This document shows, piece by piece, positions 1,114 through 24,900 of a stretch of DNA of 32,000 nucleotides (position 1 is the first letter of the stretch; each line of letters begins with the position of its first letter). Origin of the DNA: Candidatus Harpocratesius repetitus (GTDB lineage: Archaea; Asgardarchaeota; Lokiarchaeia; Sigyniarchaeales; Promethearchaeaceae); contig JAIZWK010000001.1 of the NCBI GenBank assembly GCA_021498095.1, positions 150,001 to 182,000 of the forward strand, given 5' to 3'. The notes under the pieces were generated by a model. That model was not told the origin of the DNA. It ran no database searches and saw only the letters and a list, made by a program, of their open reading frames with translations. Made by a program: the position numbers and the translations under genes.

Positions 1114-4100
1114 GTGGCGTCACAGATAATAAGATTTAATCCAATAAATTTTTCTAAACAATCTTGTGGAACTGCGGATGAAATAATCAAAAATAATCAA
1201 TATGTTTTTAATCGCATTCAGGAAATAATAAATTCGAAATATAAGAATAAAAGTACATTAAATAAACTTCAAAAATTAGAAGAATTAATTTTAGATTGTT
1301 ATACAAACAACACAAATATTATTAATCTAAAGAAAAATCCCTTCATTGAAGTTCCAAGTGATACAAGATTCCCTAATAATTTTAACTCAATTGCAGATCA
1401 TTCCATATTTACGGCTGCATTAATGCAGTTACTACTTTCACTCTGCTTCGACAAATTAAATCAAAAATCGAATATTGATAACAATATAAATACAAAGAAC
1501 TACGAAGATTATCAGGATTTAATTCAAAAATCCCCATTCTATGAAAAATTATTAGATGCTTTATTTCCATCTTCTCCAAAAATATTTCTAGAGAATGCCT
1601 CAAAAAATCAAATTAAACCACTTGATATTTTGTTATATGGACGACTAGCAGGATTACTGCACGATATTCAAAAACCTAAACTAAATAAGCATGCAGAAAT
1701 TGGAGCTGAAAGAGTAGAAAAACTATTAACTAATATCGGAATTCAAAAAGAGATTACAGAAATAATCGTGTCTGCAATAAAGCAACATCATACAAAAAAT
1801 CCAAATATCGGATTGTTTGGTGAAATTCTTCAACTTTCTGATAAAATAGGGACTGCAGATAGAAGTTCATTATTTGATCTTGAGATATTCTACAATATTT
1901 TAAAAAGTGATCCTCTTATTCATAGTGTTTTTACCGATAAAGGAAAAGAAGATTTTATCAAAGGAATAGAAGAGCATGATGTTGAGAAACTCATAAATTT
2001 AAAGATTCAATGGCAGTACGGAATAGAATTTCCATTTTTTATTACTAATGATTCGCAGGTTAAAGAGAGTTATTTAAATAAAGAATTACGAAATTTGAGT
2101 GCTAAAATAAATAAACTTTTTGATCTTCCAATTGAAAAAAGAATTCAATTTGATAATGATCATGCATTGTTTTTCTTTTTTGTTGAATTTCGTAGCATTC
2201 AGAAGTTCATTTTTCGCTCTCCTGAACTCAAACAAATAAGGGGTTCAAGCGAATTAATTATATGGATTAATAAACTAATAAAGGAAGAGTTCTCAAAAAT
2301 CAATGGAAGAGAGGCAATAGTAAATGAAAAAGGTGGAAGCTTTTTAGGAATATGTACATTTCAACAATACAAATTTATAAAGAAGGCAATTATTAAAAGA
2401 ATCTCCAATGAATTAAAAGGTCTCGATTCTAATCTTGATTCAGATGAAATTCTAAAAAGACTTGATTTTCATCCTTTGCACACACCTTTTTCTCTTTCAG
2501 AAATATTTTTTGGTTCCGAACAAATGGGATATGATTTTAACAAAATATGGAATGAGATACAATTAACACCAGATAATACTAATTCAGAAGAGCATAGAAA
2601 TGCAATTCTATCATATTTCAATATCAATCCCCATCTATTTGATAAAATGACGATTGCTGCCAAAAAGTTTTATTTCTTTTCAAATTTTATTCGAAAAAAA
2701 GGTTTTGGTGAACTTATTTCATTATTTTTTAATACGCCCCATTTACAAGAGTTTTCGAAAATAATGAATCATTCTGTCAATGATATTTCTGATAATCAAA
2801 AACAGGCAGAATTACTCAAAAATTCACTTTCAGCCCAAATTTTTGAACAATTTAATTCTAATTTACTTCTATGTCAAGTTTGTGGAGAAGAAATTGCTTC
2901 AATTATAAATTCCACTGATAATGATGATGAAAATAACCCCATGTACATTTGCCAACAATGTAAATTAGCATACATTAAGGATGAAGAAGTAAAGAAACGA
3001 ATTTCAACTAATACGACAAGATATTTTGATTATTCAAATTTATTCCGTTTAAAAATGGAAATTTTAAACCAATTGAAAGCAAATTTTAAATTAAAATATC
3101 CCAACCTTAAAATCGATCTCCCTAAATCCATAGATGATATTGTTTTAGAGCACCAATCTAAAGAAAACAAAGGTAGACAACTAATTGCAATGATAAAGCT
3201 TGATGGTAATAATGTCGGTGTTGCAAAATCTAATTTGAGTTCATGGGCAGCATATCGTACTTTTTCTCAAATGCTAGATCAAAAAGTCTATAAAAATATT
3301 AAAGAAATAATAATTAATATCGTTGAAAAAGACATTATTACTTTAATAAATGAAAAGAATAATAAAAAGAACTTAGAGGAAATCAAGTCTGATAAAGAAA
3401 AAATCATCTATTTCATTCCTTTTGAACCAATCATTATTGGTGGAGATGATATCACTTTAATCCTGCGTGGAAATTTGGCATTTAATTTTATTAAAGATTT
3501 TTTTGAAAGATTAAAAATAATATTTGGAAATCCAAGATTATTCTATCTAAACCAAAATAAATTAAAAATATTCAAAGAAAGAATAAACAATTTTGAAGAA
3601 ATGGGATTAGATTGGAAAGAGCGATGTAAATTAATTGCATTAACTACTGATGAAATTGTAGAATTTAATGGAAGTACTTTTCCAATGGGTTATTCTGGCG
3701 GATTAGTTTTTGGAAATTCAAAGGCACCTCTAACCCGTTTATTTTCTTTAGCAGATACTCTTGAACAAAAATCTAAGCAATATATTAAATCAAAAATAAT
3801 GAAATTACTTCAAAAAGTGTTTACTGATGAATTATTCGACAATAAGAAGCAGCACGAAGATATTTTCAAGGATTCAGATCATCTTATAAGAATTATGGGT
3901 TCATGGAGCAGTATATCATCATTTTACTCTTCAACTCATGATCTTTCAAAAAGCTTCTTAGAAAAATATTTTCAAAAAGAAATCTTGAATTATGAAGAAG
4001 AAAATTCATATAAATATATTTTAACACAATTTCCAATGACTGAAATTGAATTTAATAAATTTTTCAATGATATATATAAATTGAAGGCACTATTTTTTGG

Positions 4101-4377
4101 TGGACATACGGGAAAAAATAAGAAAGAAATCAGCTATAATTCCTTAAAAATGAAAATTCGAAATATTCTCGAAAAAACACCAAATGAAAATAAGTTGGAT
4201 TTTTATTACTGGGCAGGAAGAGTAGATGAAAAGGACAAAAAACATGCGGAAATCCTAAAATTAATTCCAAGACTTATCCTTCCCACAAGTCAAACCAAAT
4301 CTTCAAAATTATTCTATATCCCATTTTTCGACTTGGTACAGTATTCAAATATCGTCGATAAAAAGGAGGCTTATTAA
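1114..4377 (+). CDS. cas10: Cas10 large subunit with N-terminal HD nuclease, Zn finger and GGDD cyclase palm (1087 aa)
   Basis: PSDTRFP..SIADHS, LLHDIQKP, KHA, QHH and LSDKI (HD set); FRSIQKFIF..LKQIRGSS (palm 1); CQVC..CQQC; IKLDGNNVG and IGGDDI (palm 2). GTG start with GAGGG SD-like motif. Confidence 0.95.
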   Translation: MASQIIRFNPINFSKQSCGTADEIIKNNQYVFNRIQEIINSKYKNKSTLNKLQKLEELILDCYTNNTNIINLKKNPFIEVPSDTRFPNNFNSIADHSIFTAALMQLLLSLCFDKLNQKSNIDNNINTKNYEDYQDLIQKSPFYEKLLDALFPSSPKIFLENASKNQIKPLDILLYGRLAGLLHDIQKPKLNKHAEIGAERVEKLLTNIGIQKEITEIIVSAIKQHHTKNPNIGLFGEILQLSDKIGTADRSSLFDLEIFYNILKSDPLIHSVFTDKGKEDFIKGIEEHDVEKLINLKIQWQYGIEFPFFITNDSQVKESYLNKELRNLSAKINKLFDLPIEKRIQFDNDHALFFFFVEFRSIQKFIFRSPELKQIRGSSELIIWINKLIKEEFSKINGREAIVNEKGGSFLGICTFQQYKFIKKAIIKRISNELKGLDSNLDSDEILKRLDFHPLHTPFSLSEIFFGSEQMGYDFNKIWNEIQLTPDNTNSEEHRNAILSYFNINPHLFDKMTIAAKKFYFFSNFIRKKGFGELISLFFNTPHLQEFSKIMNHSVNDISDNQKQAELLKNSLSAQIFEQFNSNLLLCQVCGEEIASIINSTDNDDENNPMYICQQCKLAYIKDEEVKKRISTNTTRYFDYSNLFRLKMEILNQLKANFKLKYPNLKIDLPKSIDDIVLEHQSKENKGRQLIAMIKLDGNNVGVAKSNLSSWAAYRTFSQMLDQKVYKNIKEIIINIVEKDIITLINEKNNKKNLEEIKSDKEKIIYFIPFEPIIIGGDDITLILRGNLAFNFIKDFFERLKIIFGNPRLFYLNQNKLKIFKERINNFEEMGLDWKERCKLIALTTDEIVEFNGSTFPMGYSGGLVFGNSKAPLTRLFSLADTLEQKSKQYIKSKIMKLLQKVFTDELFDNKKQHEDIFKDSDHLIRIMGSWSSISSFYSSTHDLSKSFLEKYFQKEILNYEEENSYKYILTQFPMTEIEFNKFFNDIYKLKALFFGGHTGKNKKEISYNSLKMKIRNILEKTPNENKLDFYYWAGRVDEKDKKHAEILKLIPRLILPTSQTKSSKLFYIPFFDLVQYSNIVDKKEAY

Positions 4378-5033
4378 TGAAATCTAAAGTCACTGTTAAT
4401 CTGTTATTTCATCATTCTTTCCATATTGGTGCAAGCGGACATGAAAGTGAAGTAATTGATATGCCGATATTAACAGATATAAAAAACAATAAACGAATCC
4501 CAAAAATTCCGGAAAATGTAATTAAAGGGGTGTTACGTAAAACCGCTTTTCACATATCTTTAAATCTTTTTAAGAATAAAACTGATAAAGAAATTTGGGA
4601 TATTTTTAGTAAAAAAGCACATCACATGTCCCCCATGGATGATGTAAAGAACCATCCTTTTGTCCAACTATTCGGAGCACCAAATATTCCAGGTAAAATC
4701 AGAATATTAGATTCAAATTTTATCAGCCAACCTAAAATATTTGTAAAACAAGGAATTCGAATCAACAGAGAACTTCTTTCAACTGAACAAAATGCACTTT
4801 TCAATATGGAACTTGCTGAAGTTAAAGGATTTTCATTTAAAATTGAAGGTATCTTTCTAACTTCAGAGGAAAAAGCTTTATTATTAGCAACATTAAATGC
4901 ATTACAGTATAGCTCATTTGGCGGCTTAATATCACAAGGCGCGGGATTAATTTCAAAAGTTGAGATTGAAGGAAAAAAATTTGTGAAAATAGCACAATCC
5001 ACTTTAAAACAACTAATTCAAAATGAAACTTAA
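4377..5033 (+). CDS. cas7: Cas7-group RAMP (Csm3-like)
   Basis: FHIGASG, IPENVIKGVLR (variant of IPGSSLKG), QLFG, GIRINR, Gly loop FGGLISQGAG. Start overlaps the cas10 stop (TAATG); SD GGAGG. Confidence 0.8.
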   Translation: MKSKVTVNLLFHHSFHIGASGHESEVIDMPILTDIKNNKRIPKIPENVIKGVLRKTAFHISLNLFKNKTDKEIWDIFSKKAHHMSPMDDVKNHPFVQLFGAPNIPGKIRILDSNFISQPKIFVKQGIRINRELLSTEQNALFNMELAEVKGFSFKIEGIFLTSEEKALLLATLNALQYSSFGGLISQGAGLISKVEIEGKKFVKIAQSTLKQLIQNET

Positions 5034-5096
5034 AAACTAACACCATAATAAATAAAATCCTATGTAATAACAACAATCCAATAAAGAGGAAAAATA

Positions 5097-6431
5097 ATGA
5101 CAATTAAAGAAATAAACCTAATATTACAAAATAAAACACCAATAATAATTAAAACGGGAAAAAAGCAATTAAACATTGTAAAAACGCTAAATTTTATTCC
5201 AGGTTCCACCTTATATGGTGCTATTGTTAATCAGATTTTATTGGATCATTATGAACGGAATAATACGGAGCTTTTATCAAAAATATATAAAGATGGTTGG
5301 CTGGAAATACTTAACGATAATAACAAGAATAATGAAGAAATTCGTCAAAATTCAGAAGGACAATATCGAAATTGGATTCAAAATCTTTCATCTGATATGA
5401 ATACAATCAGTTTAAAGGTTTCAGACTTTTTACCTGTTAACATTAATAAAAATAACCATCAAAATTCAATTTCTCCTTATCCACCTTTAGATTCAATTTT
5501 TCGATGTCGGGTGAATGGCAACCACATATCTGATGGCTTATTACATATAATAATTAAAAATAGAATTATTCAAGAACAAAATACTGAAGAATATAAGTAT
5601 TTTGCCTTTAGTTCGCTAAAATGTCCATATTATCATTGCAATAGTTCTATGAAAAAGGGAACTTCCTTATTACAAATGAATTTAAAGGAAAATAAAATTG
5701 AAAAAGTTGAATTTCAAACAGAAGAAAAAATTGGAATAGGAATAAATGAAAGGACATATTCAATTCTGAGGGAATCAATAGGAAAAGACACAAAGGGATA
5801 TTTATTCTATCAAGAAACGATACAACCCAATCAATATTTCGCAGGGAAAATCATTTTTAATGATAACATAATTTCTCTTTCAAAATTAAAGGAATATATT
5901 GAATCTTGCAATATTGGAGCAAAAAAATCTGTAAATTTCGGAAAATTGAGGATTATTTCACATGATGTAAATGAGAGAACCATAGATAAAGTAAAAGAAG
6001 AATTATACAAAAAATATCAAAAGAATCATAATGATTTAATAGAATATCAAGAAAAGTATAACCTTAATCCAAAAATGATAATTCCATTCTTGATTTATAG
6101 CAATACTTCAATAACTGCCATGAAAAATATCTCAAACTATTTAGCAACTAAATTCAATTGTAAAGAAATAAATTTTATCAAAGGTAGTTATGAAATTTTA
6201 TCCCTAAAAGATTTCGTTTCAGGAAAATCAACACATTTTGGAATTTTACCACGTGGTTCTACAGGATATATTCAAAATAATAAAATTTTAGAGGGAAAAA
6301 CTAAAGAAGAATTTTTCAACTTTTTAAGTAATATTGAAATATTTGGATTTGGAACAAATTCTGCGAAGGGCTTAAGTGAAATCCGCTTTTTCCCAAATAT
6401 TTTTTATCATAATCAGAAAATTAAGTTATAG
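5097..6431 (+). CDS. csx10: Csx10-like (Cas5-group, double RAMP) type III-D subunit
   Basis: FIPGSTLYGAI, IGINERT, YQETIQPNQYFAG, IGAKKSVNFG, second Gly loop GFGTNSAKG; position matches the III-D order. Confidence 0.7.
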   Translation: MTIKEINLILQNKTPIIIKTGKKQLNIVKTLNFIPGSTLYGAIVNQILLDHYERNNTELLSKIYKDGWLEILNDNNKNNEEIRQNSEGQYRNWIQNLSSDMNTISLKVSDFLPVNINKNNHQNSISPYPPLDSIFRCRVNGNHISDGLLHIIIKNRIIQEQNTEEYKYFAFSSLKCPYYHCNSSMKKGTSLLQMNLKENKIEKVEFQTEEKIGIGINERTYSILRESIGKDTKGYLFYQETIQPNQYFAGKIIFNDNIISLSKLKEYIESCNIGAKKSVNFGKLRIISHDVNERTIDKVKEELYKKYQKNHNDLIEYQEKYNLNPKMIIPFLIYSNTSITAMKNISNYLATKFNCKEINFIKGSYEILSLKDFVSGKSTHFGILPRGSTGYIQNNKILEGKTKEEFFNFLSNIEIFGFGTNSAKGLSEIRFFPNIFYHNQKIKL

Positions 6432-6532
6432 GAGTTGCACAAGAATATAAAACTAAGTTAATAACTAAAATTATTTTTTTTTTGCGTAAAGAAATAAAAA
6501 GAAACAAAACAATGCTTTATGTGGTGAAAAAA

Positions 6533-6919
6533 ATGACAGACACAAAAAAGTCTATAACAAAGGAAGAATTACGAGAACTCATTGCGAAAAAAGCAATTGA
6601 ACTCGTAAATAAATACGAATTTAGCGAACGAAATGGAGTTTCTTCATCAAATTTAAGAAATTTATTAAATTTCAGTACATCATCAGCAGTTTCTCCAAAT
6701 CAGTTCATTCTTTTTGCAAAATATCAAGCAACACGTAAAGATGATCGGGTTTATTCTAAATTTACAAACGACTTTCTTAATACTGCTAAAGAATTAATTT
6801 CAAAGATTGGATGCAGATCAATTAAAGAAAAGATGGAAATATATAAGGAATTGCTTATCAGCATAGTTATGGGCGGAACTTTTCGGAAGAACGCACACGA
6901 AAAGATAGAAGCAATATAA
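6533..6919 (+). CDS. Small subunit Cas11 (Csm2-like), about 128 aa
   Basis: All-helical; SSSNLRNLL and FAKYQATR resemble III-D small subunits. Start moved to ATG 6533 because GTGGTG SD lies 6 nt upstream (ORF track starts at 6482). Confidence 0.65.
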   Translation: MTDTKKSITKEELRELIAKKAIELVNKYEFSERNGVSSSNLRNLLNFSTSSAVSPNQFILFAKYQATRKDDRVYSKFTNDFLNTAKELISKIGCRSIKEKMEIYKELLISIVMGGTFRKNAHEKIEAI

Positions 6920-6937
6920 ATAATTTGAGGGTGAAAA

Positions 6938-7714
6938 ATGACAGGAGAAATTTTAGGAAAATATATTATCGATTATTCCATCAAAACTTTAGAACCTTTA
7001 GCCATCGGAGGAACTCAACAGAACATTAGAATATCCGAGTCCGATCGCCCTGTTCTAAAGGATTCAAATGAAATTCCCTATATTCCCGGTAGTTCAATAA
7101 AAGGTCTTTTCCGAACATTCTTTGATCGAATGACAGAAGGATTTAAGCAGTTAACACAGAATCATCCAGCATTTTCTGGAGTTAAATTTAATTTAACTCA
7201 CAACAATCCAAATAAATCAGAGGAAGTTTGTGACTGTACACAATTAACAACACTAAAAGAAGATGAAATTTGCGATTTATGCCTACTTTTTGGAGCAAAA
7301 GGATACGGTTCACCTTTAATTTTTACTGATTTACTTTTAGATGAAGAAAAAGAGGATATCGAATTAGAACATAACACACATATCCGAATTGACAGAGGGA
7401 CGGATACAACAGTTAAAGGCGCGCTATTTTATGTAGAATCTGTTCCGAAAGATATAGAATTTAAAGGAAAAATAATCTTTGAAGTTCGAGATATAAATGA
7501 ACAGATTAAAAATCGAATTGATCTACTATTTAAAATACTTCTCCATCAAATTGAAAATAGAGAAATGCATGTAGGAGGAATGAAATCCAGAGGATACGGC
7601 TTATGTTCCTTTAAAATAAATGAAATCCATTATTATAGCCTTCAAGACCTAATTTTAGGTAATTTAGAAGAGAAGAAACCATTGATCATAGATCAATTTT
7701 TATCATGGTCTTAA
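6938..7714 (+). CDS. csm3: Cas7 (Csm3) backbone RAMP
   Basis: EPLAIGG, SDRPVLKD, PYIPGSSIKG, CDC..CDLC.LFG, HIRIDR, LFYVE, VGGMKSRGYG; SD GAGGGTGA. Confidence 0.9.
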   Translation: MTGEILGKYIIDYSIKTLEPLAIGGTQQNIRISESDRPVLKDSNEIPYIPGSSIKGLFRTFFDRMTEGFKQLTQNHPAFSGVKFNLTHNNPNKSEEVCDCTQLTTLKEDEICDLCLLFGAKGYGSPLIFTDLLLDEEKEDIELEHNTHIRIDRGTDTTVKGALFYVESVPKDIEFKGKIIFEVRDINEQIKNRIDLLFKILLHQIENREMHVGGMKSRGYGLCSFKINEIHYYSLQDLILGNLEEKKPLIIDQFLSWS

Positions 7715-7778
7715 AATATAATTAAATTCCAAAAAAAACAATTAGAATAAATAAGAAACATAAAGGAGATGCATTAAA

Positions 7779-8576
7779 ATAACATATAAATTTTCAAACT
7801 CATCAAAATTTTCAAAATACGATAGTTTTGCCAAAATAACTTTCGAAATCGAAACACAATCACCGCTATTAATTAAAAGCGGCGATAATGATTTACTTCC
7901 ATCAAGCAAAGATATGAGATTTGTACGAGATTCTTCAGGAAGTATTTTTATACCTGGATCCACCATGAAGGGTTTCTTTAAGGGAAATTTAGAACGTCTA
8001 AATGAATATTTTAAAGAAGATATTATTGAACACAGCTTTGGAACGCAGCAATTTGCAAGTAGTTTTCTGTTTAATGATGTTTATCCAACTGATAACGAAA
8101 CAATTTCATTTGAAACACGCTCTCAAATTGCGATTGATCGCCAAACTCAAGGCGTTCAAAAAGGTGCATTATTCTTTATTGAGTGCTTATCAAAAGGTGC
8201 AAAACTTGCTGGAAGTATTAATATCAGAAATCTCCGTTTATACCATTTGGGGCAACTTTATGCAATTATAATGATGGCAAATGATCAAAATATTAGTATT
8301 GGATTTAACAAAACGAGAGGATATGGAAAAATTAAGTTCTCCATCAAAGAACTAATTATTGATACACTTCCAAACCAATGGATCTTCAATTCAACTGATG
8401 GAAAGATAATAATTTCAGATGGTATAAAAACAATAGAATTTAAAGATGAAAATTTTAATACAAACAGTTTAAAAACGAAAAAATCTTTGTTGATGGATAA
8501 TTATCAATTTAAAGAAAAAGAAGCGTCGATGATAATGGAATCTTGTCTTGAAATTATTAAGAAAGGTGAAAACTAA
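7779..8576 (+). CDS. cas7: Cas7 (Csm3-like) RAMP; true start is upstream of the ORF-track start, probably non-AUG (ATA 7779)
   Basis: Frame open from 7764 and encodes AKITFEIETQSPLLIKSG (first RAMP strand) before the ATG at 7914; then FIPGSTMKG, QIAIDR, LFFIE, IGFNKTRGYG. SD AAGGAG at 7763-7768. Start position is inferred. Confidence 0.8.
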   Translation: MTYKFSNSSKFSKYDSFAKITFEIETQSPLLIKSGDNDLLPSSKDMRFVRDSSGSIFIPGSTMKGFFKGNLERLNEYFKEDIIEHSFGTQQFASSFLFNDVYPTDNETISFETRSQIAIDRQTQGVQKGALFFIECLSKGAKLAGSINIRNLRLYHLGQLYAIIMMANDQNISIGFNKTRGYGKIKFSIKELIIDTLPNQWIFNSTDGKIIISDGIKTIEFKDENFNTNSLKTKKSLLMDNYQFKEKEASMIMESCLEIIKKGEN

Positions 8577-8692
8577 AATTAGGTGGGAATATAAACGAAA
8601 TAAAGGCAGATATTGTAAAAATTAGATCCATGAAAAATGAATGAAAAAAAAAGATCAAAAAAATTAGAAAAAAGTGATGAGGACAAAAAAAA

Positions 8693-9346
8693 ATGGAAAA
8701 AAACACTAAACTCATTCGAACCCTGCTTTATATTTCAATAGATTCGGAAATAGATACATATATTAGTAAATTATTTTCCAAAATTCAAGAAATAATTGAT
8801 TTTAACAGCAACAATATTCAAAAAAATAATCATGATATTAATGAAATCGAAGAAAATAAGTATCGTATTTTAGCCCAAAAATACCATTTTATCGATTACA
8901 AGCAGATAGACTCGCTTTCAGATATAAAAAATAAAGATTTACTTAATTCTTATAAATTCAATATAATTCATCGTTACATTTCAATATCGATAATTAATAA
9001 AGAAACTAAATTAGATGTAAATATTTTCGCTACCAAAAGAATAATAACGCAAATTCTCGAAAGTTCAGTCTTAAAAGATATAAAAAACAATGATTTTATT
9101 CATGCAGACTATATTCCCATTAGTTCAATTGAAGAGAACAAAAAAGAAAAAACATACAATAATAATTATCAAAAAAATATTTTCATATATTCAACAGAAT
9201 CACAAAAAGATATATACAATTTAAAGATTGAACCATGGCTGAGATCAGAAAAGGAGTCTGATGAAAATAATAAAACTAAAATGGGAATTAATTTACCCGA
9301 ATTACCTGAAGTCTACTATAATATTCTTAATATCATATCTGTTTAG
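8693..9346 (+). CDS. Hypothetical protein in the Csx19 position of the III-D operon
   Basis: 217 aa between the tandem cas7 pair and the terminal cas7, the slot Csx19 occupies in III-D loci. No motif recognised; assignment is positional only. Confidence 0.4.
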   Translation: MEKNTKLIRTLLYISIDSEIDTYISKLFSKIQEIIDFNSNNIQKNNHDINEIEENKYRILAQKYHFIDYKQIDSLSDIKNKDLLNSYKFNIIHRYISISIINKETKLDVNIFATKRIITQILESSVLKDIKNNDFIHADYIPISSIEENKKEKTYNNNYQKNIFIYSTESQKDIYNLKIEPWLRSEKESDENNKTKMGINLPELPEVYYNILNIISV

Positions 9347-9370
9347 TGAATTAAAAAAAAAGTGATATGT

Positions 9371-10339
9371 ATGGCACAAAACTCAAATAAAGTTGCAATT
9401 GTTGATGAAAATGACTATTACATGTATTTAACTATTCCCAATTTGGAACAGGTTAAAAAAAAGCAAATGACAGTTAGATCAACTATAAAAAATATATGGA
9501 AAATCAAATATCAATTTAAAGTTTCACATGATTCAGCCCTACATGTTGGAAGTGGATTAGTTAAATACCCTATAGATTCCGATAACCCTAATCAAGAAAG
9601 TGCACTGGATTTTATGAGAACTCCAGATAGAAAGCCGTTTATTCCAGGATCAACATTAAAAGGATATACCCGCTCTAATTTTGAAATATTAGTTCCCGGT
9701 TGTTGTTTTATCACAAATAATAAATCCATGGATAAACCGCCCGCCTGTAAAGGCGATTCTATAAATATATGCTCCGCTTGTGATCTATTTGGCGTTAATA
9801 AAATTATGGGAAGGGTATCATTTTCTGATGCCTATTTAATGGGAGATTTTACTGAAAAAGTACTACAGATTCCAAGATTAATGGGTCCTTCAAAGAATAA
9901 GTATATTGCAGGGACTAAAAAACTTTATAAATATATTAAATTAGAAGAACTTTCACAAATATCCAAAAGAAGGGATGCAATTTGGGTTGTAAACCCCGGA
10001 GCGGAATTCCAAGGTGAAATTACGGTAACAAACAGCAATATTAATGAAATTAGACAATTAACTTTATCATTCGCATATATGTATAAAGATGCAACATTAA
10101 TTTTAGGACATGGTAAAAATATCGGTTTAGGTCACTGCCAAATTTCAAAATTAATTATCTTTCAGAAAAAGACACCATTCGAAAAATTAAAAAAGCACAC
10201 AGTGAAAATTCCTGAAATTTACAAAGATCCATTAATTGGAAAAAGTAAAACTGAGAAATTAATTCGCTGGGATATTCTTAAAAAAACATTTACTAAAAAT
10301 GGATTTCCATATCCAGGTCATGGAGATAGAAATTACTAA
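9371..10339 (+). CDS. cas7: Terminal Cas7-group RAMP of III-D (no large insertion)
   Basis: ALHVGSG, PFIPGSTLKGYTRS, C..C..CSACDLFG, GRVSFSDA, KKLY, LGHGKNIGLG. Start either GTG 9362 or ATG 9371 (GTGA SD-like motif 5 nt upstream). Confidence 0.8.
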   Translation: MAQNSNKVAIVDENDYYMYLTIPNLEQVKKKQMTVRSTIKNIWKIKYQFKVSHDSALHVGSGLVKYPIDSDNPNQESALDFMRTPDRKPFIPGSTLKGYTRSNFEILVPGCCFITNNKSMDKPPACKGDSINICSACDLFGVNKIMGRVSFSDAYLMGDFTEKVLQIPRLMGPSKNKYIAGTKKLYKYIKLEELSQISKRRDAIWVVNPGAEFQGEITVTNSNINEIRQLTLSFAYMYKDATLILGHGKNIGLGHCQISKLIIFQKKTPFEKLKKHTVKIPEIYKDPLIGKSKTEKLIRWDILKKTFTKNGFPYPGHGDRNY

Positions 10340-12638: not shown

Positions 12639-13325
12639 ATGATAATGAAAATGTCAAAAATAATGGATGATTGGTTCCCATTAGAGCCATTAAACAAAAA
12701 GAAAAATGGGGAATGGTTTTTCTCAGCAGATGAATTACGACAATATTTTTACTGCCCCAGAATTCCATTTTATAGAATTGTCCGTAAATTAAAAACAAAT
12801 CAAACAGCAATAATGCGTAGAGGTAAAGTATTTCATGAAAAAATTGTTCATAAACGCAAAAAACTTGAAAAATGGCTTAAAATTAATGAAAAAAACCAAG
12901 AAAAAAACATGTATTACTTCAATCTTTATTTAGAATCTCCATCATTGCACCTGCTTGCCTACTTAGACTTGGTTGAAAAGGAAAAAGATTCAAATGAAAT
13001 ATATCCAGTCGAATTAAAAACTGTGTCAGAACTCCCTAAAAATAATATATTTTTAGTAAAAGGTCATTTAATTCAACTCACTGTACATTCACTCCTTTTA
13101 GAAGAACATTTTAACACTTTTATCTCCAAAGCAAAATTAATCTATATATCTAATGAAAAAGTAAAATCTTTTTGGCAGGAAATCACAATTGACATGAAGA
13201 AGGTTGTTCTGAAAACGGTGAATAAGATGCATAAAAGTATAATTTCGGAAGATATTCCCGCTCCAATCAAAAATCTGAATAAGTGCAGAGTTTGTGATTT
13301 CAGACGCATTTGTAAAATAATTTAG
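12639..13325 (+). CDS. cas4: Cas4 RecB-like Fe-S nuclease
   Basis: QYFYCPR, GKVFHE, YLDLVE, PVELK, QLTVH, C-terminal CRVCDFRRIC (four-Cys cluster). Confidence 0.9.
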   Translation: MIMKMSKIMDDWFPLEPLNKKKNGEWFFSADELRQYFYCPRIPFYRIVRKLKTNQTAIMRRGKVFHEKIVHKRKKLEKWLKINEKNQEKNMYYFNLYLESPSLHLLAYLDLVEKEKDSNEIYPVELKTVSELPKNNIFLVKGHLIQLTVHSLLLEEHFNTFISKAKLIYISNEKVKSFWQEITIDMKKVVLKTVNKMHKSIISEDIPAPIKNLNKCRVCDFRRICKII

Positions 13326-13383: not shown

Positions 13384-16300
13384 ATTTCAATTAACTCTTT
13401 GATAGTTTCAAGCTTGCAGGTAGACACCTTTTTAAACGACAAATCAGTAACCATTAAATATTTCAATTATCTCTTTGATAGTTTCAAGCTTGCAGGAAAA
13501 AAAAAATTTATTTTAGGGGGGGGGTACTGCTTTATTTCAATTATCTCTTTGATAGTTTCAAGCTTGCAGGAGCATTTATGCTCAGATGGGACCTGGCACT
13601 ATCCACGCATTTCAATTATCTCTTTGATAGTTTCAAGCTTGCAGGATTATACTACAAAAGTTCTAAATCCCAAATTCTTTTTATTTCAATTATCTCTTTG
13701 ATAGTTTCAAGCTTGCAGGCTCAATCATCTGATCGATCTTCGATTAATTGAAGAGAAATTTCAATTATCTCTTTGATAGTTTCAAGCTTGCAGGGGGAGC
13801 ATGTGATTATCATGCTCAATTTGCTGAAGATGGATTTCAATTATCTCTTTGATAGTTTCAAGCTTGCAGGTTATCCTCAAAATAATTATACCATGCGAGT
13901 AAATCTTCATTTCAATTATCTCTTTGATAGTTTCAAGCTTGCAGGGGTCAACCCGATTTTGTTATTCGATCTCAATTATACTGATTTCAATTATCTCTTT
14001 GATAGTTTCAAGCTTGCAGGAAACTGAAGGGCTTTTTCCCTAATCTGACTGTAGGTTATTTCAATTATCTCTTTGATAGTTTCAAGCTTGCAGGGATCGG
14101 TTGTATCATCAGATCTACAGTGAAGTGCTTGAATTTCAATTATCTCTTTGATAGTTTCAAGCTTGCAGGACATGGCTTGTGCCAACTGGGAAAGTTGCTT
14201 CAACAATGAATTTCAATTATCTCTTTGATAGTTTCAAGCTTGCAGGGGTCAACCCGATTTTGTTATTCGATCTCAATTATACTGATTTCAATTATCTCTT
14301 TGATAGTTTCAAGCTTGCAGGCTCGTGGGATTAGCACTTGTGAAGCGTGGAAACTGCAGATTTCAATTATCTCTTTGATAGTTTCAAGCTTGCAGGCCCA
14401 AAGATGCGGCAAAAATCATTAGAAATTGCTTAAAATTTCAATTATCTCTTTGATAGTTTCAAGCTTGCAGGGATATCTTGTCCGTTTAAATCGATAGTAT
14501 CTTTTCTTAAATTTCAATTATCTCTTTGATAGTTTCAAGCTTGCAGGGATCAAATCAATGGATAACAAGAATGCGCTTTTACACATTTCAATTATCTCTT
14601 TGATAGTTTCAAGCTTGCAGGAGAATCGAGCAAAGATTATTATATTTCTTTGCAAGATTAATTTCAATTATCTCTTTGATAGTTTCAAGCTTGCAGGTGG
14701 AAAGAACAATGAAAAGATGTCAGTTGAAAAAGCATTTCAATTATCTCTTTGATAGTTTCAAGCTTGCAGGAAAAAAAAAGATTATTCTTCCCACCCTTCG
14801 GGGGTGAATTTCAATTATCTCTTTGATAGTTTCAAGCTTGCAGGTGCAATGAAGGTATTGAAGGTGTATAAAAACAATAAAATTTCAATTATCTCTTTGA
14901 TAGTTTCAAGCTTGCAGGTTGCCAAAAGCTATTCAATCTCTCAAATCTGAGTTGAGATTTCAATTATCTCTTTGATAGTTTCAAGCTTGCAGGGATAATG
15001 ATCATTTCATAAACTCAAGCGAAAAAAAAGAATTTCAATTATCTCTTTGATAGTTTCAAGCTTGCAGGGTTACCTTCTATAATAACTTTGGGTGGAAGAC
15101 AATAGAATTTCAATTATCTCTTTGATAGTTTCAAGCTTGCAGGGAGCTCCCTTCTCAATGCTGGTGGGCTGTATGTTCACATTTCAATTATCTCTTTGAT
15201 AGTTTCAAGCTTGCAGGCGTTCTTGACATAAATTTCTCTCACCTCAGCTTTTAACATTTCAATTATCTCTTTGATAGTTTCAAGCTTGCAGGCCACGTAT
15301 TTGAGGCAGAAGCAGAAATTCTTTCTGAGATATTTCAATTATCTCTTTGATAGTTTCAAGCTTGCAGGAATATGATTTGAAATTATATATCTTAAGATGT
15401 TCTACAATTTCAATTATCTCTTTGATAGTTTCAAGCTTGCAGGGATGAATATTCCTCATCTTCAGGATCGGTGATTACCATTTCAATTATCTCTTTGATA
15501 GTTTCAAGCTTGCAGGCAATTATGTTTTTTGAGCAACTTAAACTGATTTTAGCAATTTCAATTATCTCTTTGATAGTTTCAAGCTTGCAGGGTTAAGATT
15601 CCCATTAAAACTGATGAGGAGACTGGCGATTTCAATTATCTCTTTGATAGTTTCAAGCTTGCAGGAAATTATTCAAAAAAAATGGAGATCTTAATCCAAA
15701 CTAATTTCAATTATCTCTTTGATAGTTTCAAGCTTGCAGGAGAGAAATTGAGAATGCCTCTCTGACCTCTTCAGAGTTATTTCAATTATCTCTTTGATAG
15801 TTTCAAGCTTGCAGGAGAAATAAAGCAATTAGAGCAAGATTTTCAAAGAAAATATTTCAATTATCTCTTTGATAGTTTCAAGCTTGCAGGTCTCTTGATT
15901 TAACAAAATCTCTTCTAAACTCGAATTCAATTTCAATTATCTCTTTGATAGTTTCAAGCTTGCAGGTTCAAGTCAAACAATTGAATTGAGTAAATCCGTC
16001 GATTTATTTCAATTATCTCTTTGATAGTTTCAAGCTTGCAGGTGGGATAGCCACTACAACAGAGAAACTGAGAGAAATTGATTTCAATTATCTCTTTGAT
16101 AGTTTCAAGCTTGCAGGATCTACAGTTGGATGAATTGGAAAGACTTAAGCCAATGCATTTCAATTATCTCTTTGATAGTTTCAAGCTTGCAGGTTTTATT
16201 GCAGCAGTAGTTAAGAATGATGCGTGGGCTATTTCAATTATCTCTTTGATAGTTTCAAGCTTGCAGGCTTTTTCACGTAATAACTCATATATTGCATCTG

Positions 16301-19300
16301 CTGAGATTTCAATTATCTCTTTGATAGTTTCAAGCTTGCAGGCCAAACATTTTATTATATATTATGAAGTTATCAAAGGAATTTCAATTATCTCTTTGAT
16401 AGTTTCAAGCTTGCAGGGCATTTTACGGAATGCATCAAGATTGGTTTTGGACCGCATTTCAATTATCTCTTTGATAGTTTCAAGCTTGCAGGGTGGTTGT
16501 TCCTTATACGGGTAATAAAAGCGATTTTAAATTTCAATTATCTCTTTGATAGTTTCAAGCTTGCAGGGTTCATGAGAAACGCGTTCAGAAAATAAAGCAA
16601 TTTGAATTTCAATTATCTCTTTGATAGTTTCAAGCTTGCAGGATTAATGCTAAAGTCAAGCCAAAAGAATGGCATTACGAATTTCAATTATCTCTTTGAT
16701 AGTTTCAAGCTTGCAGGCTAACAACATTCAAGCTGATGCTTCTGAATCTTCCAACTATTTCAATTATCTCTTTGATAGTTTCAAGCTTGCAGGTAATTAT
16801 AATTGTAATATGGGTACTATTTATATTGATTTATTTCAATTATCTCTTTGATAGTTTCAAGCTTGCAGGTGAACTGAAAGAAGAGTTCAAAGATATCGTG
16901 CAATTTTTATTTCAATTATCTCTTTGATAGTTTCAAGCTTGCAGGGAAGAATTTCCTTCAAAATCTCATGGGAGATTCAAGACATTTCAATTATCTCTTT
17001 GATAGTTTCAAGCTTGCAGGACGGAAAAGAGCAGCATTTTTGATGAGAAGAGGGTAAAATTTCAATTATCTCTTTGATAGTTTCAAGCTTGCAGGCTGTA
17101 TAACCAGGAAAAAAGCGCCGGAAGAAAATTCAAATTTCAATTATCTCTTTGATAGTTTCAAGCTTGCAGGAAAATTTCTGTTAGACAGGATGTCTATGCA
17201 CAATTATGATTTCAATTATCTCTTTGATAGTTTCAAGCTTGCAGGCCTTTGATATGGGTGCTGAAATCTATACTGCACAAAATATTTCAATTATCTCTTT
17301 GATAGTTTCAAGCTTGCAGGTTCTTTAATCAAATATTTTAATCAATCTTTCAATTTCAATTTCAATTATCTCTTTGATAGTTTCAAGCTTGCAGGCCAAG
17401 CGGATTTCGTGGGATCTCCGAGATCTGCATAAATTTCAATTATCTCTTTGATAGTTTCAAGCTTGCAGGAGGTTCAACGAAAGAAGATCCTTTATATCCA
17501 CATGGAGATTTCAATTATCTCTTTGATAGTTTCAAGCTTGCAGGGAATTTATTAGTTTGGGTGGTGAGTAGAGACAAAAGAATTTCAATTATCTCTTTGA
17601 TAGTTTCAAGCTTGCAGGAAGGATGCAGTATTAAGGCAATACTGCTCCATCCGGTTATTTCAATTATCTCTTTGATAGTTTCAAGCTTGCAGGAAATTAT
17701 TTAAAGAAATGTATGAATTAACATCAATTAAATTTCAATTATCTCTTTGATAGTTTCAAGCTTGCAGGAGTGAGAGTTAATACTCTCATGTTTGCTGGGA
17801 GTCTATAATTTCAATTATCTCTTTGATAGTTTCAAGCTTGCAGGGGTGCATTTACCCATTCGATCTTCTTTTATAAATGAGTATTTCAATTATCTCTTTG
17901 ATAGTTTCAAGCTTGCAGGTTTGAAGTTTTGCTGCTGAAGGGTTTTACTATACCGGAAATTTCAATTATCTCTTTGATAGTTTCAAGCTTGCAGGTTTTT
18001 TTTCGTGATTTTTTCTTGACTTGGATTACAGGAATTTCAATTATCTCTTTGATAGTTTCAAGCTTGCAGGAGCAGACAATTCAATTCCAGAAGAGGGTAA
18101 AAAGTTTCATTTCAATTATCTCTTTGATAGTTTCAAGCTTGCAGGTGAGTGTGAATGAGTATAACCGTCCAGCCCAAATCTCCTATTTCAATTATCTCTT
18201 TGATAGTTTCAAGCTTGCAGGAATTTCTTTGGGACAAAGACATTCAACACATTCGAATTCATTTCAATTATCTCTTTGATAGTTTCAAGCTTGCAGGAGT
18301 GAGATTTGGAATGAAATTTTATGCTCATGTCTCAGATTTCAATTATCTCTTTGATAGTTTCAAGCTTGCAGGGTATTTTAATCATTTCTTCCCATGTTTT
18401 ATCATTAAAATTTCAATTATCTCTTTGATAGTTTCAAGCTTGCAGGTCCTACATATGGATAATCTTGACACAGTTCGAGAGAATAATTTCAATTATCTCT
18501 TTGATAGTTTCAAGCTTGCAGGTTCCTACTTCAGTTTGGTTGCATTCCCCAAAATCTTCAATTTCAATTATCTCTTTGATAGTTTCAAGCTTGCAGGCCA
18601 TTACCCCTATCATAAAATTTCTAAGAGTAGGCTCAATTTCAATTATCTCTTTGATAGTTTCAAGCTTGCAGGTTATATATTTTAAAATATAATGTAAAGT
18701 CTTATCTGTAAATTTCAATTATCTCTTTGATAGTTTCAAGCTTGCAGGAAAAGATCTCTTTTTTCTTTATCTTCTGGAAGATTAATATTTCAATTATCTC
18801 TTTGATAGTTTCAAGCTTGCAGGAATAATTACAACTTTTCAAAAATGTGAATTCTACATGTATTTCAATTATCTCTTTGATAGTTTCAAGCTTGCAGGAA
18901 TTAAGGAAGCATTACCGTCCAAAGAGACAATATTGGATTTCAATTATCTCTTTGATAGTTTCAAGCTTGCAGGTTTGAATGCAGAAGAAGAAAAGCAATA
19001 TGAAAAAATCAGATTTCAATTATCTCTTTGATAGTTTCAAGCTTGCAGGTTTTTTCTTTATCCATTCTAACCATCTCACTAAATTATAATTTCAATTATC
19101 TCTTTGATAGTTTCAAGCTTGCAGGTATGATGCAGTAACTCATATTTCAGAAATAACTTTTGCATTTCAATTATCTCTTTGATAGTTTCAAGCTTGCAGG
19201 CTATTATCTTGATATAAATTCGTTATATCCTTACGTAAATTTCAATTATCTCTTTGATAGTTTCAAGCTTGCAGGATTCACGAGCAAAGGCTCAAGAAAA

Positions 19301-22300
19301 TAAAACAATTTGAATTTCAATTATCTCTTTGATAGTTTCAAGCTTGCAGGCCGTGGGGATGAAAGAGATATGCAAAATATCAATCGAGATTTCAATTATC
19401 TCTTTGATAGTTTCAAGCTTGCAGGGTTAAAATTATACGTGAGTATGATGAAAATAATATTGAATTTCAATTATCTCTTTGATAGTTTCAAGCTTGCAGG
19501 AAGAACTGATTAAGATTATGAAGGAGCATGGTTTTACATTTCAATTATCTCTTTGATAGTTTCAAGCTTGCAGGATAATAGTTGATGAACGGGAAAGACC
19601 TTCCGGATTAATATTTCAATTATCTCTTTGATAGTTTCAAGCTTGCAGGTAATATTTTTAAAACGGGTGGAAAAGGAGGAATAAACAATTTCAATTATCT
19701 CTTTGATAGTTTCAAGCTTGCAGGCTAAAGCGGTAATCCTCATACCGAAAACTGCATTTGTTATTTCAATTATCTCTTTGATAGTTTCAAGCTTGCAGGG
19801 CCGGTAAGACGACTGAGAGCACCAAATAAAGATACAGATTTCAATTATCTCTTTGATAGTTTCAAGCTTGCAGGTAGGTATTTGCGGATCTTGTAGTCAA
19901 CACTGTAATTGTATTTCAATTATCTCTTTGATAGTTTCAAGCTTGCAGGGATCCTGTTTATCATCAACAACAATATTTAACAGACATATTTCAATTATCT
20001 CTTTGATAGTTTCAAGCTTGCAGGGTGGCACAATATAGACAACAGAGAAAAGAAGGACTTGCTATTTCAATTATCTCTTTGATAGTTTCAAGCTTGCAGG
20101 TTTCTCTGTGGATAATCTATTCGACGCCTTAAAAATGAATTTCAATTATCTCTTTGATAGTTTCAAGCTTGCAGGAACATATCAATCCACTGTTGGCAAA
20201 TGTCGATAAAGATATTTCAATTATCTCTTTGATAGTTTCAAGCTTGCAGGTTCAAATCTTTTTGGATCTCGGTAAACATTTTAATCGAATTTCAATTATC
20301 TCTTTGATAGTTTCAAGCTTGCAGGAGAGTGGGAAGAAAAAGAACAAGAACGCTTGTTCTTATTTCAATTATCTCTTTGATAGTTTCAAGCTTGCAGGTT
20401 TATTCTGCCCAAGTGCCATAATCAAACTTTGAAGGATTTCAATTATCTCTTTGATAGTTTCAAGCTTGCAGGGCTTTCATCTGGTCGTTTGAGACAGAAG
20501 TTCCTTCAAAATTTCAATTATCTCTTTGATAGTTTCAAGCTTGCAGGAGATTTTTCGATATTTTCATCTATTTTTTTTGTTTTTATTTCAATTATCTCTT
20601 TGATAGTTTCAAGCTTGCAGGGTTGTTCTGTATGCCCTGTGACAGTTGTATTTGCTGATATTTCAATTATCTCTTTGATAGTTTCAAGCTTGCAGGTAAC
20701 GGCGATTGTATGTATTTCTTTAAGATTATATTCCATTTCAATTATCTCTTTGATAGTTTCAAGCTTGCAGGAATCCATGCTATCCCAAATAATGAACCAC
20801 ATAAAAGCAATTTCAATTATCTCTTTGATAGTTTCAAGCTTGCAGGATGAAATTCTTGCTCAGAATTGAAAAAAGCGGATTAACATTTCAATTATCTCTT
20901 TGATAGTTTCAAGCTTGCAGGTTTTTTTATAGTGTATTAGTTGTAATAACAAAATTTAATTTCAATTATCTCTTTGATAGTTTCAAGCTTGCAGGACAAT
21001 CGAAATAACATATACGCCGAAAGATTATTTGATATTTCAATTATCTCTTTGATAGTTTCAAGCTTGCAGGCTGCCAATAGATACCACTTCGGTATAATAC
21101 AAATAATTATTTCAATTATCTCTTTGATAGTTTCAAGCTTGCAGGCTTTTTCCCAAGAAAAAAGTGAAAGGAAAACACTATGTATTTCAATTATCTCTTT
21201 GATAGTTTCAAGCTTGCAGGTTGAACGACATTGGTTTGTACAACCAATATCGTAGTATAATTTCAATTATCTCTTTGATAGTTTCAAGCTTGCAGGCTCC
21301 AAGCACCAGCTGGAGATGACAAGTGGATATTTATTTCAATTATCTCTTTGATAGTTTCAAGCTTGCAGGTCAAAGGGTATTATGGTTTCAATAAAAAGTG
21401 AAGAACTAATTTCAATTATCTCTTTGATAGTTTCAAGCTTGCAGGAGCAATGGAATAATAGAATGGTATTGGAAATTTGGGCAATTTCAATTATCTCTTT
21501 GATAGTTTCAAGCTTGCAGGTTTTAATCTTGCTAATATATTTCTGCTCATAGAAATTGCATTTCAATTATCTCTTTGATAGTTTCAAGCTTGCAGGCGGG
21601 GCGGGGGTGTAGAGATGAATCCACCGAATTTTAATTTCAATTATCTCTTTGATAGTTTCAAGCTTGCAGGGGCTCCTTCTTCAAAGAGTCTCATCTTTGA
21701 AGAAATATATTTCAATTATCTCTTTGATAGTTTCAAGCTTGCAGGCATTGGGGTTTGGAGGGGGTCCGAGTTAGATCGAAATAATTTCAATTATCTCTTT
21801 GATAGTTTCAAGCTTGCAGGTAACTTCCATGATATTTTAAACGAGATCCAAGAGGAGAAATTTCAATTATCTCTTTGATAGTTTCAAGCTTGCAGGGCCC
21901 TTGTAAGAGGCAGCATAGCAACCAGATTGTTCTAATTTCAATTATCTCTTTGATAGTTTCAAGCTTGCAGGACGGGCAGGAAGAATATTTAAAACTTTCG
22001 GACGCGGAATTTCAATTATCTCTTTGATAGTTTCAAGCTTGCAGGTAACAAATCAATTTCTCTTCTAAATTCTGCAAGTTGAGATTTCAATTATCTCTTT
22101 GATAGTTTCAAGCTTGCAGGCAGAAAATATGAGAAAATCATGATTGAATCACCAGGTGATTTCAATTATCTCTTTGATAGTTTCAAGCTTGCAGGCTCAA
22201 GCGGGTATTTGAATGAATCATGTCTGTTATTGGATTTCAATTATCTCTTTGATAGTTTCAAGCTTGCAGGAAATTTTTGGCTTGAATAGAGCCTTCTTCT

Positions 22301-24745
22301 TAAAGAAATTTCAATTATCTCTTTGATAGTTTCAAGCTTGCAGGCTTTTGATTGCACAGATATGTGGAGCGTAGAGATTGAATTTCAATTATCTCTTTGA
22401 TAGTTTCAAGCTTGCAGGGGTATAAATGCAAATTCACTTTTGATTGCACAGATATGATTTCAATTATCTCTTTGATAGTTTCAAGCTTGCAGGTATAAAT
22501 GCTATCGAAATGATATTAAACGCTTCTTTTCATTTCAATTATCTCTTTGATAGTTTCAAGCTTGCAGGGCAAGATAATGCAAGATCTTTGGATAATCTGG
22601 ATATTATTTCAATTATCTCTTTGATAGTTTCAAGCTTGCAGGTAGAAAGATATCGATTAGTAGAATTAATTAATGTAAATATTTCAATTATCTCTTTGAT
22701 AGTTTCAAGCTTGCAGGGAGAGATAATACTCTCTCAAGCGCTTCTGCATATTTGTAATTTCAATTATCTCTTTGATAGTTTCAAGCTTGCAGGTTAGTGT
22801 TCAGATAACTGAACCGGAGTGAAAAAAAATAATTTCAATTATCTCTTTGATAGTTTCAAGCTTGCAGGAAGGAAAGGATAGATTTGGATATCTATCCTGG
22901 GATTTATTTCAATTATCTCTTTGATAGTTTCAAGCTTGCAGGAGATAATTAATTTCCTTATATGTAATCTCAAATACAAAATTTCAATTATCTCTTTGAT
23001 AGTTTCAAGCTTGCAGGTCACTTTTTTTTCACTCCTGTTTTTTATCACTCCCGGCATTTCAATTATCTCTTTGATAGTTTCAAGCTTGCAGGTCCGATAT
23101 TGACAGAGGTATTCTCAGGGAACTGTATAATTTCAATTATCTCTTTGATAGTTTCAAGCTTGCAGGTAATATTATATAATCACTATGTCAACTAATAACG
23201 GTCGTATTTCAATTATCTCTTTGATAGTTTCAAGCTTGCAGGGTGGTATGGATGTGCTGGTGTGGATTTGGATGATGAAATTTCAATTATCTCTTTGATA
23301 GTTTCAAGCTTGCAGGTCCCACCATTTTAAAGAGAGCGTTCTTAAACACTCTCTTATTTCAATTATCTCTTTGATAGTTTCAAGCTTGCAGGTTGGAAAC
23401 GTATTTATGCACAGATTATAAAAGGGCTGAGCATTTCAATTATCTCTTTGATAGTTTCAAGCTTGCAGGGGTGTAAATTCACATGCGGAGATTGATTCTC
23501 ATATTGCATTTCAATTATCTCTTTGATAGTTTCAAGCTTGCAGGTAATGATACTAATGCTAACGATTTAGATCTAAGTGGAAATTTCAATTATCTCTTTG
23601 ATAGTTTCAAGCTTGCAGGGACATGAACTCAGAATTGGATAAAATTCTTGAGAGGATATTTCAATTATCTCTTTGATAGTTTCAAGCTTGCAGGAAGGAT
23701 GCTAAACCAGTGTAATATACTCGCGATTGGATTTCAATTATCTCTTTGATAGTTTCAAGCTTGCAGGGTATTTGTATCAGGGGAAGGATTATAAGCCTCA
23801 ATTAATTTCAATTATCTCTTTGATAGTTTCAAGCTTGCAGGTAATTTAGAAGTGTTAAAAACACTTCCTGATGAAAGTGATTTCAATTATCTCTTTGATA
23901 GTTTCAAGCTTGCAGGATTTAATCCTAAACCACCCGAAAAAATACCGGATGGAAATTTCAATTATCTCTTTGATAGTTTCAAGCTTGCAGGTGATTTGAA
24001 CGGGCGTTTATATTTGATGAGAACCTTCAAATTTCAATTATCTCTTTGATAGTTTCAAGCTTGCAGGTGAAGTATTAGAGGTGATCTCAGAGGAATTTGA
24101 TTATCAATTTCAATTATCTCTTTGATAGTTTCAAGCTTGCAGGAAAGGATGTTGGAGTTACCACGAACTGGGAAGTTATCAATTTCAATTATCTCTTTGA
24201 TAGTTTCAAGCTTGCAGGGATGATCTTGTTAAAGAAGGTTATATCGAGCATTACTTATTTCAATTATCTCTTTGATAGTTTCAAGCTTGCAGGGGAAAAT
24301 TTCAATATTATGATGGATCTTGGCACGATATATTTCAATTATCTCTTTGATAGTTTCAAGCTTGCAGGTGTAAAATTGTAATAATTCTAATGTTTTTTGT
24401 ATATGTATTTCAATTATCTCTTTGATAGTTTCAAGCTTGCAGGAAAATTCCCACAATTGCGGACATGATTCAAGATGCAGTATTTCAATTATCTCTTTGA
24501 TAGTTTCAAGCTTGCAGGCATAGATTTTATGCTCAAAGGTGAGTGGGCAGAAAGATATTTCAATTATCTCTTTGATAGTTTCAAGCTTGCAGGAAGAAAT
24601 GTATCTAAAATATCCCCGAAATTGGTTATTTTATTTCAATTATCTCTTTGATAGTTTCAAGCTTGCAGGTCTGATACCAGGTCAGCATTTTAGCAGATCC
24701 CATACATGATTTCAATTATCTCTTTGATAGTTTCAAGCTTGCAGG
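13384..24745 (-). CRISPR. CRISPR array: 152 repeats of 37 nt, 151 spacers of 36-40 nt (mostly 38)
   Basis: Plus-strand repeat ATTTCAATTATCTCTTTGATAGTTTCAAGCTTGCAGG; transcribed form CCTGCAAGCTTGAAACTATCAAAGAGATAATTGAAAT, with a 4-bp TATC/GATA hairpin followed by exactly 8 nt ATTGAAAT (Cas6-type 5' handle). The only variant repeat noticed is the leftmost (trailer end). Counted by hand; mean period 75.0 nt. Confidence 0.99.
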
Positions 24746-24900
24746 TGCTTCTAAAATGCCCTATACTTCAAAATCAGGCACTAAGAACAAAAACACCTAC
24801 ACTAATTAATATTGAATTTCCTTAAAAATTTATGCATTGGAAATTACTCCAATTAAATATGCACCAAATTCACCGAGAATTCTTCAATTACTTATTATTT
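24746..24900 (-). promoter_or_regulatory. CRISPR leader
   Basis: AT-rich non-coding stretch next to the non-degenerate end of the array, on the cas1/cas2 side; TATA-like TTTTTAAG on the minus strand near 24821-24828. Extent approximate. Confidence 0.7.

Follow-up and report, generated by a model that had tools for sequence, protein, structure and literature searches.

A CRISPR spacer of Candidatus Harpocratesius repetitus with the sense of motif A of a protein-primed DNA polymerase

Results

The CRISPR island and its main array

Candidatus Harpocratesius repetitus FW102 is a Lokiarchaeon (Lokiarchaeia) from deep-sea vent rock of the Pescadero Basin; the RNA-silencing Argonaute HrAgo1 comes from this organism (PMC11217426). 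Its assembly consists of one scaffold of 4,361,485 bases with 31% GC, 10 Ns and two 16S genes, and is 93.6% complete. The stretch of 32,000 nucleotides analysed here, referred to as the window, contains part of a CRISPR-Cas island with III-B, I-B and III-D-like modules (loci L104 and L105, about 122-150 kb in the host genome, G000, together with window positions 1114-10339). A complete type I-B module (Cas8b, Cas7, Cas5 and Cas3) lies just upstream of the window, as do a III-B module and Csx1 proteins; the III-D-like operon and the main array fall within it (Table 1). The I-B, III-B and III-D-like modules have one repeat family and a single Cas1 between them, which suggests that the I-B and the two type III modules share repeats and acquisition. 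The island also encodes two Csx1-type CARF-HEPN proteins, one of them fused to Csx20, and contains small degenerate arrays. At the place expected for Cas6 there is a 467-aa open reading frame with repeat inserts (window 11131-12534), for which no NCBIfam or PADLOC match was found.

Table 1. Features of the CRISPR island discussed in the text; positions are those of the window unless G000 is given, and the strand of the array features is that of the most likely transcript
Feature	Position	Strand	Description
Type III-D-like effector operon	1114..10339	+	Cas10 (HD, GGDD motifs), Cas7-like RAMPs, Csx10-like protein, small-subunit candidate; most RAMP matches are under their curated cut-offs
Cas4	12639..13325	+	TIGR00372 above cut-off
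Main CRISPR array	13384..24745	-	152 copies of a 37-nt repeat, 151 spacers of 36-40 nt
CRISPR repeat (37 nt), leader-distal of spacer 78	19164..19200	-	TATC/GATA stem, then 8-nt handle ATTGAAAT
Spacer 78 of 151	19201..19238 (38 nt)	-	between repeat copies 78 and 79 of the main array
CRISPR repeat, leader-proximal of spacer 78	19239..19275	-	predicted to give the 8-nt 5' handle of the spacer-78 crRNA
Putative leader	24746..24900	-	resembles DNA right of the second array (G000 137630 onward)
Cas1	28755..30278	+	sole Cas1 in the genome; low-complexity insert
Second array (L105)	G000 133706-137630		53 repeats; repeat variant by one base

The 8-nt 5' handle was assigned from the established geometry of Cas6 cutting. 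The main array is most likely read from the minus strand, because the 8-nt handle and stem are arranged accordingly, the only degenerate repeat is the leftmost one, at the trailer end, and both large arrays have similar leader-like DNA on their right; spacer pairs anchored at their right ends were also used for this orientation. The stem of the repeat is weak (-1.1 kcal/mol, no better than shuffles). The adjacent spacers 120 (22345-22381) and 121 (22419-22456), both on one strand, share an overlap of 20 nt, which implies a 5'-CCA PAM on the crRNA side, and three further spacer pairs have a common right end, as PAM-anchored capture would give; this one overlapping pair and the three pairs sharing a right end form the basis of the PAM assignment.

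Several spacers in the two arrays resemble one another. Spacers 8 (13946-13983) and 12 (14247-14284) are identical, and spacers 43 (16568-16605) and 79 (19276-19313), the latter adjoining spacer 78, agree at 29 of 38 positions in the same register and with the same ends; a search of IMG/VR with the peptide common to spacers 43 and 79 gave no match. In the second array, a block of five spacers is duplicated, and two spacer pairs have a common right end and different left ends. The repeat was not found in 13 other genomes of the host's family, which thus contributed no extra spacers.

Spacer 78 reads as motif A of a protein-primed polymerase

Spacer 78 is a unique stretch within the 36-40 nt range of the array, flanked on both sides by identical repeats, with cas genes adjoining. 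[quoted passage not shown] Met stands directly C-terminal to motif A in 143 of 148 pPolBs. The sequence-only reading of this DNA had claimed that frame 2 of the spacer encodes PolB motif A, and that the motif is of the protein-primed type; both claims are supported by the comparisons that follow.

By a Markov model of the spacers, the expected number of occurrences in the whole array, both strands included, is 1.5e-4 for D-x-N-S-L-Y-P and 1.3e-6 for the longer form [YF]-x-D-[IV]-N-S-L-Y-P. Against a profile of 123 pPolB motifs A the peptide scores 38.2 bits, more than 65% of the true motifs, and 2.8e-10 such scores are expected per array; this profile was picked after the motif had been seen, and a 1e5-fold correction for other motifs still leaves an expectation far below 1. 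In blind scans of whole libraries, the sole match of spacer 78 (with short flanks) among 24,736 Pfam models was PF03175, at an E-value of 0.046 that is under the curated cut-off and weak alone, and its sole match among 38,880 PHROGs was phrog_1907, a DNA polymerase, at an E-value of 0.028 that is also weak alone; both name the predicted pPolB family. Among the 757 stop-free frames of all 210 spacers of the genome, a pPolB HMM matched one, that of spacer 78 (E 0.0019; runner-up E 14), and the confinement of pPolB similarity to 1 of the 210 spacers counts against the reading. The codon model of the host scores frame 2 at -63.2 and minus-strand frame 1, which is also open, at -61.9; as this model shows no preference for frame 2, the pPolB case rests on the motif. 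The peptide had no match in the PDB, and a search of Rfam gave nothing relevant.

Motif A takes the form D-[IV]-N-S-[LM]-Y-P-x-[VI]-M in pPolBs (PF03175), which spacer 78 follows, and D-[FY]-x-S-[LM]-Y-P-[ST]-[IV] in RNA-primed PolBs (PF00136), which it does not. The pPolB family is further marked by TPR1 and TPR2 insertions, motifs B and C and an exonuclease domain; of the target gene, the spacer provides 12 codons. Profiles built from 132 pPolB and 57 RNA-primed motifs favour pPolB by +26.2 bits, with a leave-one-out accuracy of about 98%; both sets are biased, since L012, which went into the pPolB query alignment, had been chosen because it resembles the peptide, and the pattern DF-x-S-x-YP had been used to gather part of the RNA-primed set. 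Columns unused in choosing the RNA-primed set still give about 23 bits for pPolB, and an independent set of pPolBs from IMG/VR points the same way (-17.6 vs -37 bits).

Searches with the motif lead to the same family. Each of the 12 JGI contigs matching the degenerate form Y[LF]DINSLYPY encodes a PolB, and the layout is that of pPolBs in the contigs checked: GG-R/I-T-E lies upstream, and motifs B or C of pPolB type are present wherever the contig extends that far. Region-limited protein searches returned PF03175 proteins exclusively. Protein and profile searches found 11 of the 12 residues identical in 13 PF03175-type proteins, and the exact 12-mer YYLDINSLYPYV in none of the proteins examined. 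For the 150 best relatives of pPolBs associated with Lokiarchaeia the consensus is Y-K-L-D-V-N-S-M-Y-P-Y-V, and the spacer agrees with them in columns near the motif where Y (69%), L (70%), N (95%), Y (37%) and V (59%) occur. Judged from these sequence comparisons, spacer 78 very probably derives from a pPolB gene.

Within the limits of a 93.6% complete assembly, an origin from the genome of the host itself is excluded. The host's RNA-primed PolB had been named at the outset as a source that would overturn the reading; the host has two PolB genes, both of the PF00136 family, whose motifs, LDFSSLYPTT and LDFTSMYPAL, differ from that of the spacer, and a six-frame search of its genome gave no second D-[IV]-N-S-L-Y-P. 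A PF03175 search of the host genome gave no match; it included no positive-control genome, but PF03175 was detected in relatives.

Protospacer searches and pPolB contigs in Asgard bins

No protospacer of spacer 78 was found in the host's own genome, IMG/VR (exact and degenerate searches), JGI metagenomes (exact 23-mer), GTDB (degenerate search), phages and plasmids, 400 Asgard genomes (at up to 3 mismatches) or the supplements of two Pescadero papers; the source metagenome is apparently not among these. Two IMG/VR matches were rejected, as they read YLDINRLYP and are not PolB, and one degenerate match in GTDB was a false, non-PolB match. A comparison of 154 genomes of the host's order with part of the array gave AT-rich chance matches only, of which the one touching spacer 78 reads LDICSLYRYE.

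The best in-register DNA match, contig L101 (31 of 38 nt), was rejected as the target on account of its 7 mismatches, its 37% GC and an Amidase_2 gene pointing to a bacterial host, and we regard it as a motif relative. L101 (8587-9006) and contig L094 (9175-9606), both pPolB elements, have in common a 140-aa helical protein, 37% identical between the two, which belongs to unnamed viral clusters and is a possible capsid protein; the fold model of the L101 protein was too poor to classify (pLDDT 49).

Gene content differs widely among the elements that match the peptide at 11 of 12 residues, and their GC ranges from 24 to 56%; a virus family therefore cannot be identified from the motif. The hope that the spacer would offer a direct handle on an undescribed virus has not been fulfilled so far: no protospacer was recovered, the motif is too conserved, and pPolB viruses of Lokiarchaeia and Odinarchaeia have already been described. 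With no protospacer found, we regard the frame and the gene identity as predicted, and the linearity and the virion type of the element as presumed.

Contigs with strong PF03175 matches (3-13 kb) occur in 7 of the 400 Asgard genomes, all of them from the class of the host but from other families; in 13 relatives from the host's own family, the one to which the cultured strains belong, a PF03175 search gave no match. Four contigs from Lokiarchaeia bins, L086 (G236:C14), L087 (G241:C27), L089 (G017:C18) and L090 (G026:C100), are wyrdvirus-like, with 23-25% GC, a pPolB and an ATPase, and a small hydrophobic capsid-like gene in three of the four. The capsid candidate of L086 and the capsid protein of Muninn virus share 46% identity (E 1e-10), and the four contigs appear to fit the wyrdviruses (bioRxiv 10.1101/2021.07.29.453957). 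Contigs of this type gave no convincing match to the spacers of the genome. Another Lokiarchaeia bin contains an unusually long pPolB of about 1150 aa (L091:468-4037, G046:C76), whose long N-terminal extension may be a fused terminal protein.

Discussion

Nature of the invading element

We think it likely that spacer 78 was taken from a pPolB gene on an AT-rich mobile element, for which the foremost candidate is a virus of the wyrdvirus or Muninn kind, or another pPolB archaeal virus, with a small linear dsDNA genome and terminal inverted repeats. This AT-rich element would have entered the lineage of the Lokiarchaeon, most likely as a linear dsDNA virus of about 10-20 kb bounded by terminal inverted repeats. 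Linearity is typical of pPolB elements, and a linear genome and terminal-protein priming are assumed here from knowledge of the family. That the element is a virus rather than a plasmid or casposon is likely; that it is spindle-shaped in particular is a tentative suggestion, with a chance slightly below even. Spindle-shaped viruses of the wyrdvirus and Muninn type are marked by a His1-like major capsid protein and a pI-like ATPase.

The closest parallel is Muninn virus (OM716000) of Ca. Odinarchaeum yellowstonii, a 12.7-kb linear spindle-shaped virus with terminal inverted repeats of about 80 nt, whose pPolB gene is matched by Odinarchaeum spacers according to Tamarit et al. (PMC9246712). The two cases have in common an Asgard host, co-located type I and III-D systems and spacers against a pPolB gene. 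They differ in that protospacers are known for Odinarchaeum (three exact and three with one mismatch), whereas none was found for spacer 78; Muninn virus has the motif A KQYDVNSLYPSI and is not the target. Among the wyrdviruses of Lokiarchaeia, WyrdV2, V3, V6 and V7 encode a DNA polymerase, which in V2 and V3 is a pPolB accompanied by terminal repeats (bioRxiv 10.1101/2021.07.29.453957). Lokiarchaeial hosts and, in L086, L087, L089 and L090, AT-richness and a D-[IV]-N-S-x-Y-P motif like that of the spacer link the wyrdviruses to spacer 78, but none of the fetched contigs matches it, their motifs being, for example, YKMDINSMYPSI and TKLDINSHYPKP.

Beyond these, the Chaacviridae of ANME-1 from the Pescadero Basin are pPolB viruses with polymerases related to those of wyrdviruses (PMC9894754); they come from the same vent field as our host and differ in hosts and virion types. 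A rod-shaped virus of Jordarchaeia (PMC13700489) is likewise a pPolB-encoding archaeal virus, with another host and another virion type. As these two examples illustrate, pPolB moves between capsid types, and spacer 78 therefore cannot name a virion.

A target from a family of pPolB elements yet to be described, such as a virus of rod-like or icosahedral shape, a pPolB casposon or a linear plasmid, infecting the Asgard family of the host and the cultured strains, is rather unlikely. Were this true, recovery of the element from the FW102 enrichment would yield a pair of named virus and host, the host being a Lokiarchaeon that can be enriched; we found no named virus of Ca. Harpocratesius repetitus in the literature.

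A target that encodes a pPolB and is non-viral, either a linear plasmid or a self-synthesising transposon like the family 1 casposons, seems improbable. The motif is common to all pPolB elements (the mitochondrial-plasmid-like pPolB of L013 likewise reads YLDINSLYPY), and family 1 casposons are defined by a protein-primed PolB, together with terminal inverted repeats (PMC4046053). Such casposons, however, are integrated and need a Cas1-solo casposase, whereas the host has no pPolB and a single Cas1, located in the CRISPR locus; among the pPolB contigs from Lokiarchaeia bins, those of sufficient length for a judgement have capsid-like genes and ATPase genes, with no Cas1-like gene seen on inspection by eye, and the published Asgard pPolB elements are viruses.

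There is little chance that the source was instead an RNA-primed PolB, whether carried by a tailed virus, plasmid or family 2-3 casposon or encoded by a neighbouring cell. DxNSLYP is known from RNA-primed PolBs, where N occupies that place in 4 of 46 viral motifs (for example ILLDFNSLYPNI), but I follows D in only 1 of 57 RNA-primed motifs and Y follows P in none of the 57; the Pfam scan gave no PF00136 match to spacer 78, and the profile comparison favours pPolB by 26 bits, about 23 of them on columns that played no part in selecting the set. Coincidence, with the motif arising by chance in another frame or in non-coding DNA, is most improbable: minus-strand frame 1 is open and scores equally under the host codon model, and no target was recovered, but between 1.5e-4 (core motif) and 2.8e-10 (full profile) occurrences are expected per array, the last spacer base agrees with the conserved Met, and the rough prior that at least one of 151 spacers would fall on motif A, given pPolB viruses in the habitat, is a few percent and thus far above chance.

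Spacer 78 makes Ca. Harpocratesius repetitus one more Asgard archaeon for which there is evidence that a pPolB element attacked it. The spacer is real but ordinary, and the invader behind it, though not yet seen itself, is of a kind already known from Asgard archaea; published work covers pPolB viruses of Lokiarchaeia and of Odinarchaeia, spacers against pPolB genes and shared type I-B/III arrays. Spacer 78 illustrates that spacers can be classified by translation even when there is no protospacer, and in practice it can serve, with the other spacers of the genome (210 in all), to probe the source metagenome.

RNA and DNA targeting

The crRNA of spacer 78 is predicted to be antisense to the polymerase mRNA, because the array is most likely read from the minus strand, an orientation drawn from the handle, the leftmost repeat, the right-hand leader and the right-anchored pairs. 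Counts of open frames across the spacers show no strand bias (241 vs 241). In the main array a codon model assigns 89 of 150 spacers to the antisense type (59%, p 0.027; about 65% after correction for accuracy), and it finds no strand bias in the second array. Shared type I-B/type III arrays form a category with a common repeat and common acquisition, and a 65% coding-strand bias has been reported for type III (PMC8482600). The island resembles this category in its one Cas1 module, its one repeat family, its combination of I-B with type III and its mild bias, estimated here at about 65%; it differs in having two type III modules (III-B and III-D-like), and the sharing is in our case inferred.

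Targeting of DNA is equally possible, since the I-B, III-B and III-D-like modules have a common repeat and Cas1 and the predicted flank of the protospacer fits the PAM. Spacer 78 probably has a protospacer with a 5'-NCA PAM: the motif would be followed by ATG, the codon of the conserved Met, and NCA is compatible with the CCA given by the overlapping pair. The proposal that the polymerase mRNA is the target thus holds in part, in that repeat geometry and the shared leader make the crRNA antisense to that mRNA; restricting the target to mRNA is too narrow, given a complete type I-B module beside type III with the same repeat and the only Cas1. We suggest that the guide probably serves both activities. 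A transcript of the minus strand of the array would be processed to a crRNA that pairs with the polymerase mRNA and guides type III complexes, with RNA cutting and cOA signalling to Csx1, and the same crRNA would guide type I-B Cascade/Cas3 to the DNA of the element. The spacer also contains a perfect 7-bp stem (window 19211-19229; GATATAA / TTATATC, with a 5-nt loop), which could fold the crRNA and weaken the guide.
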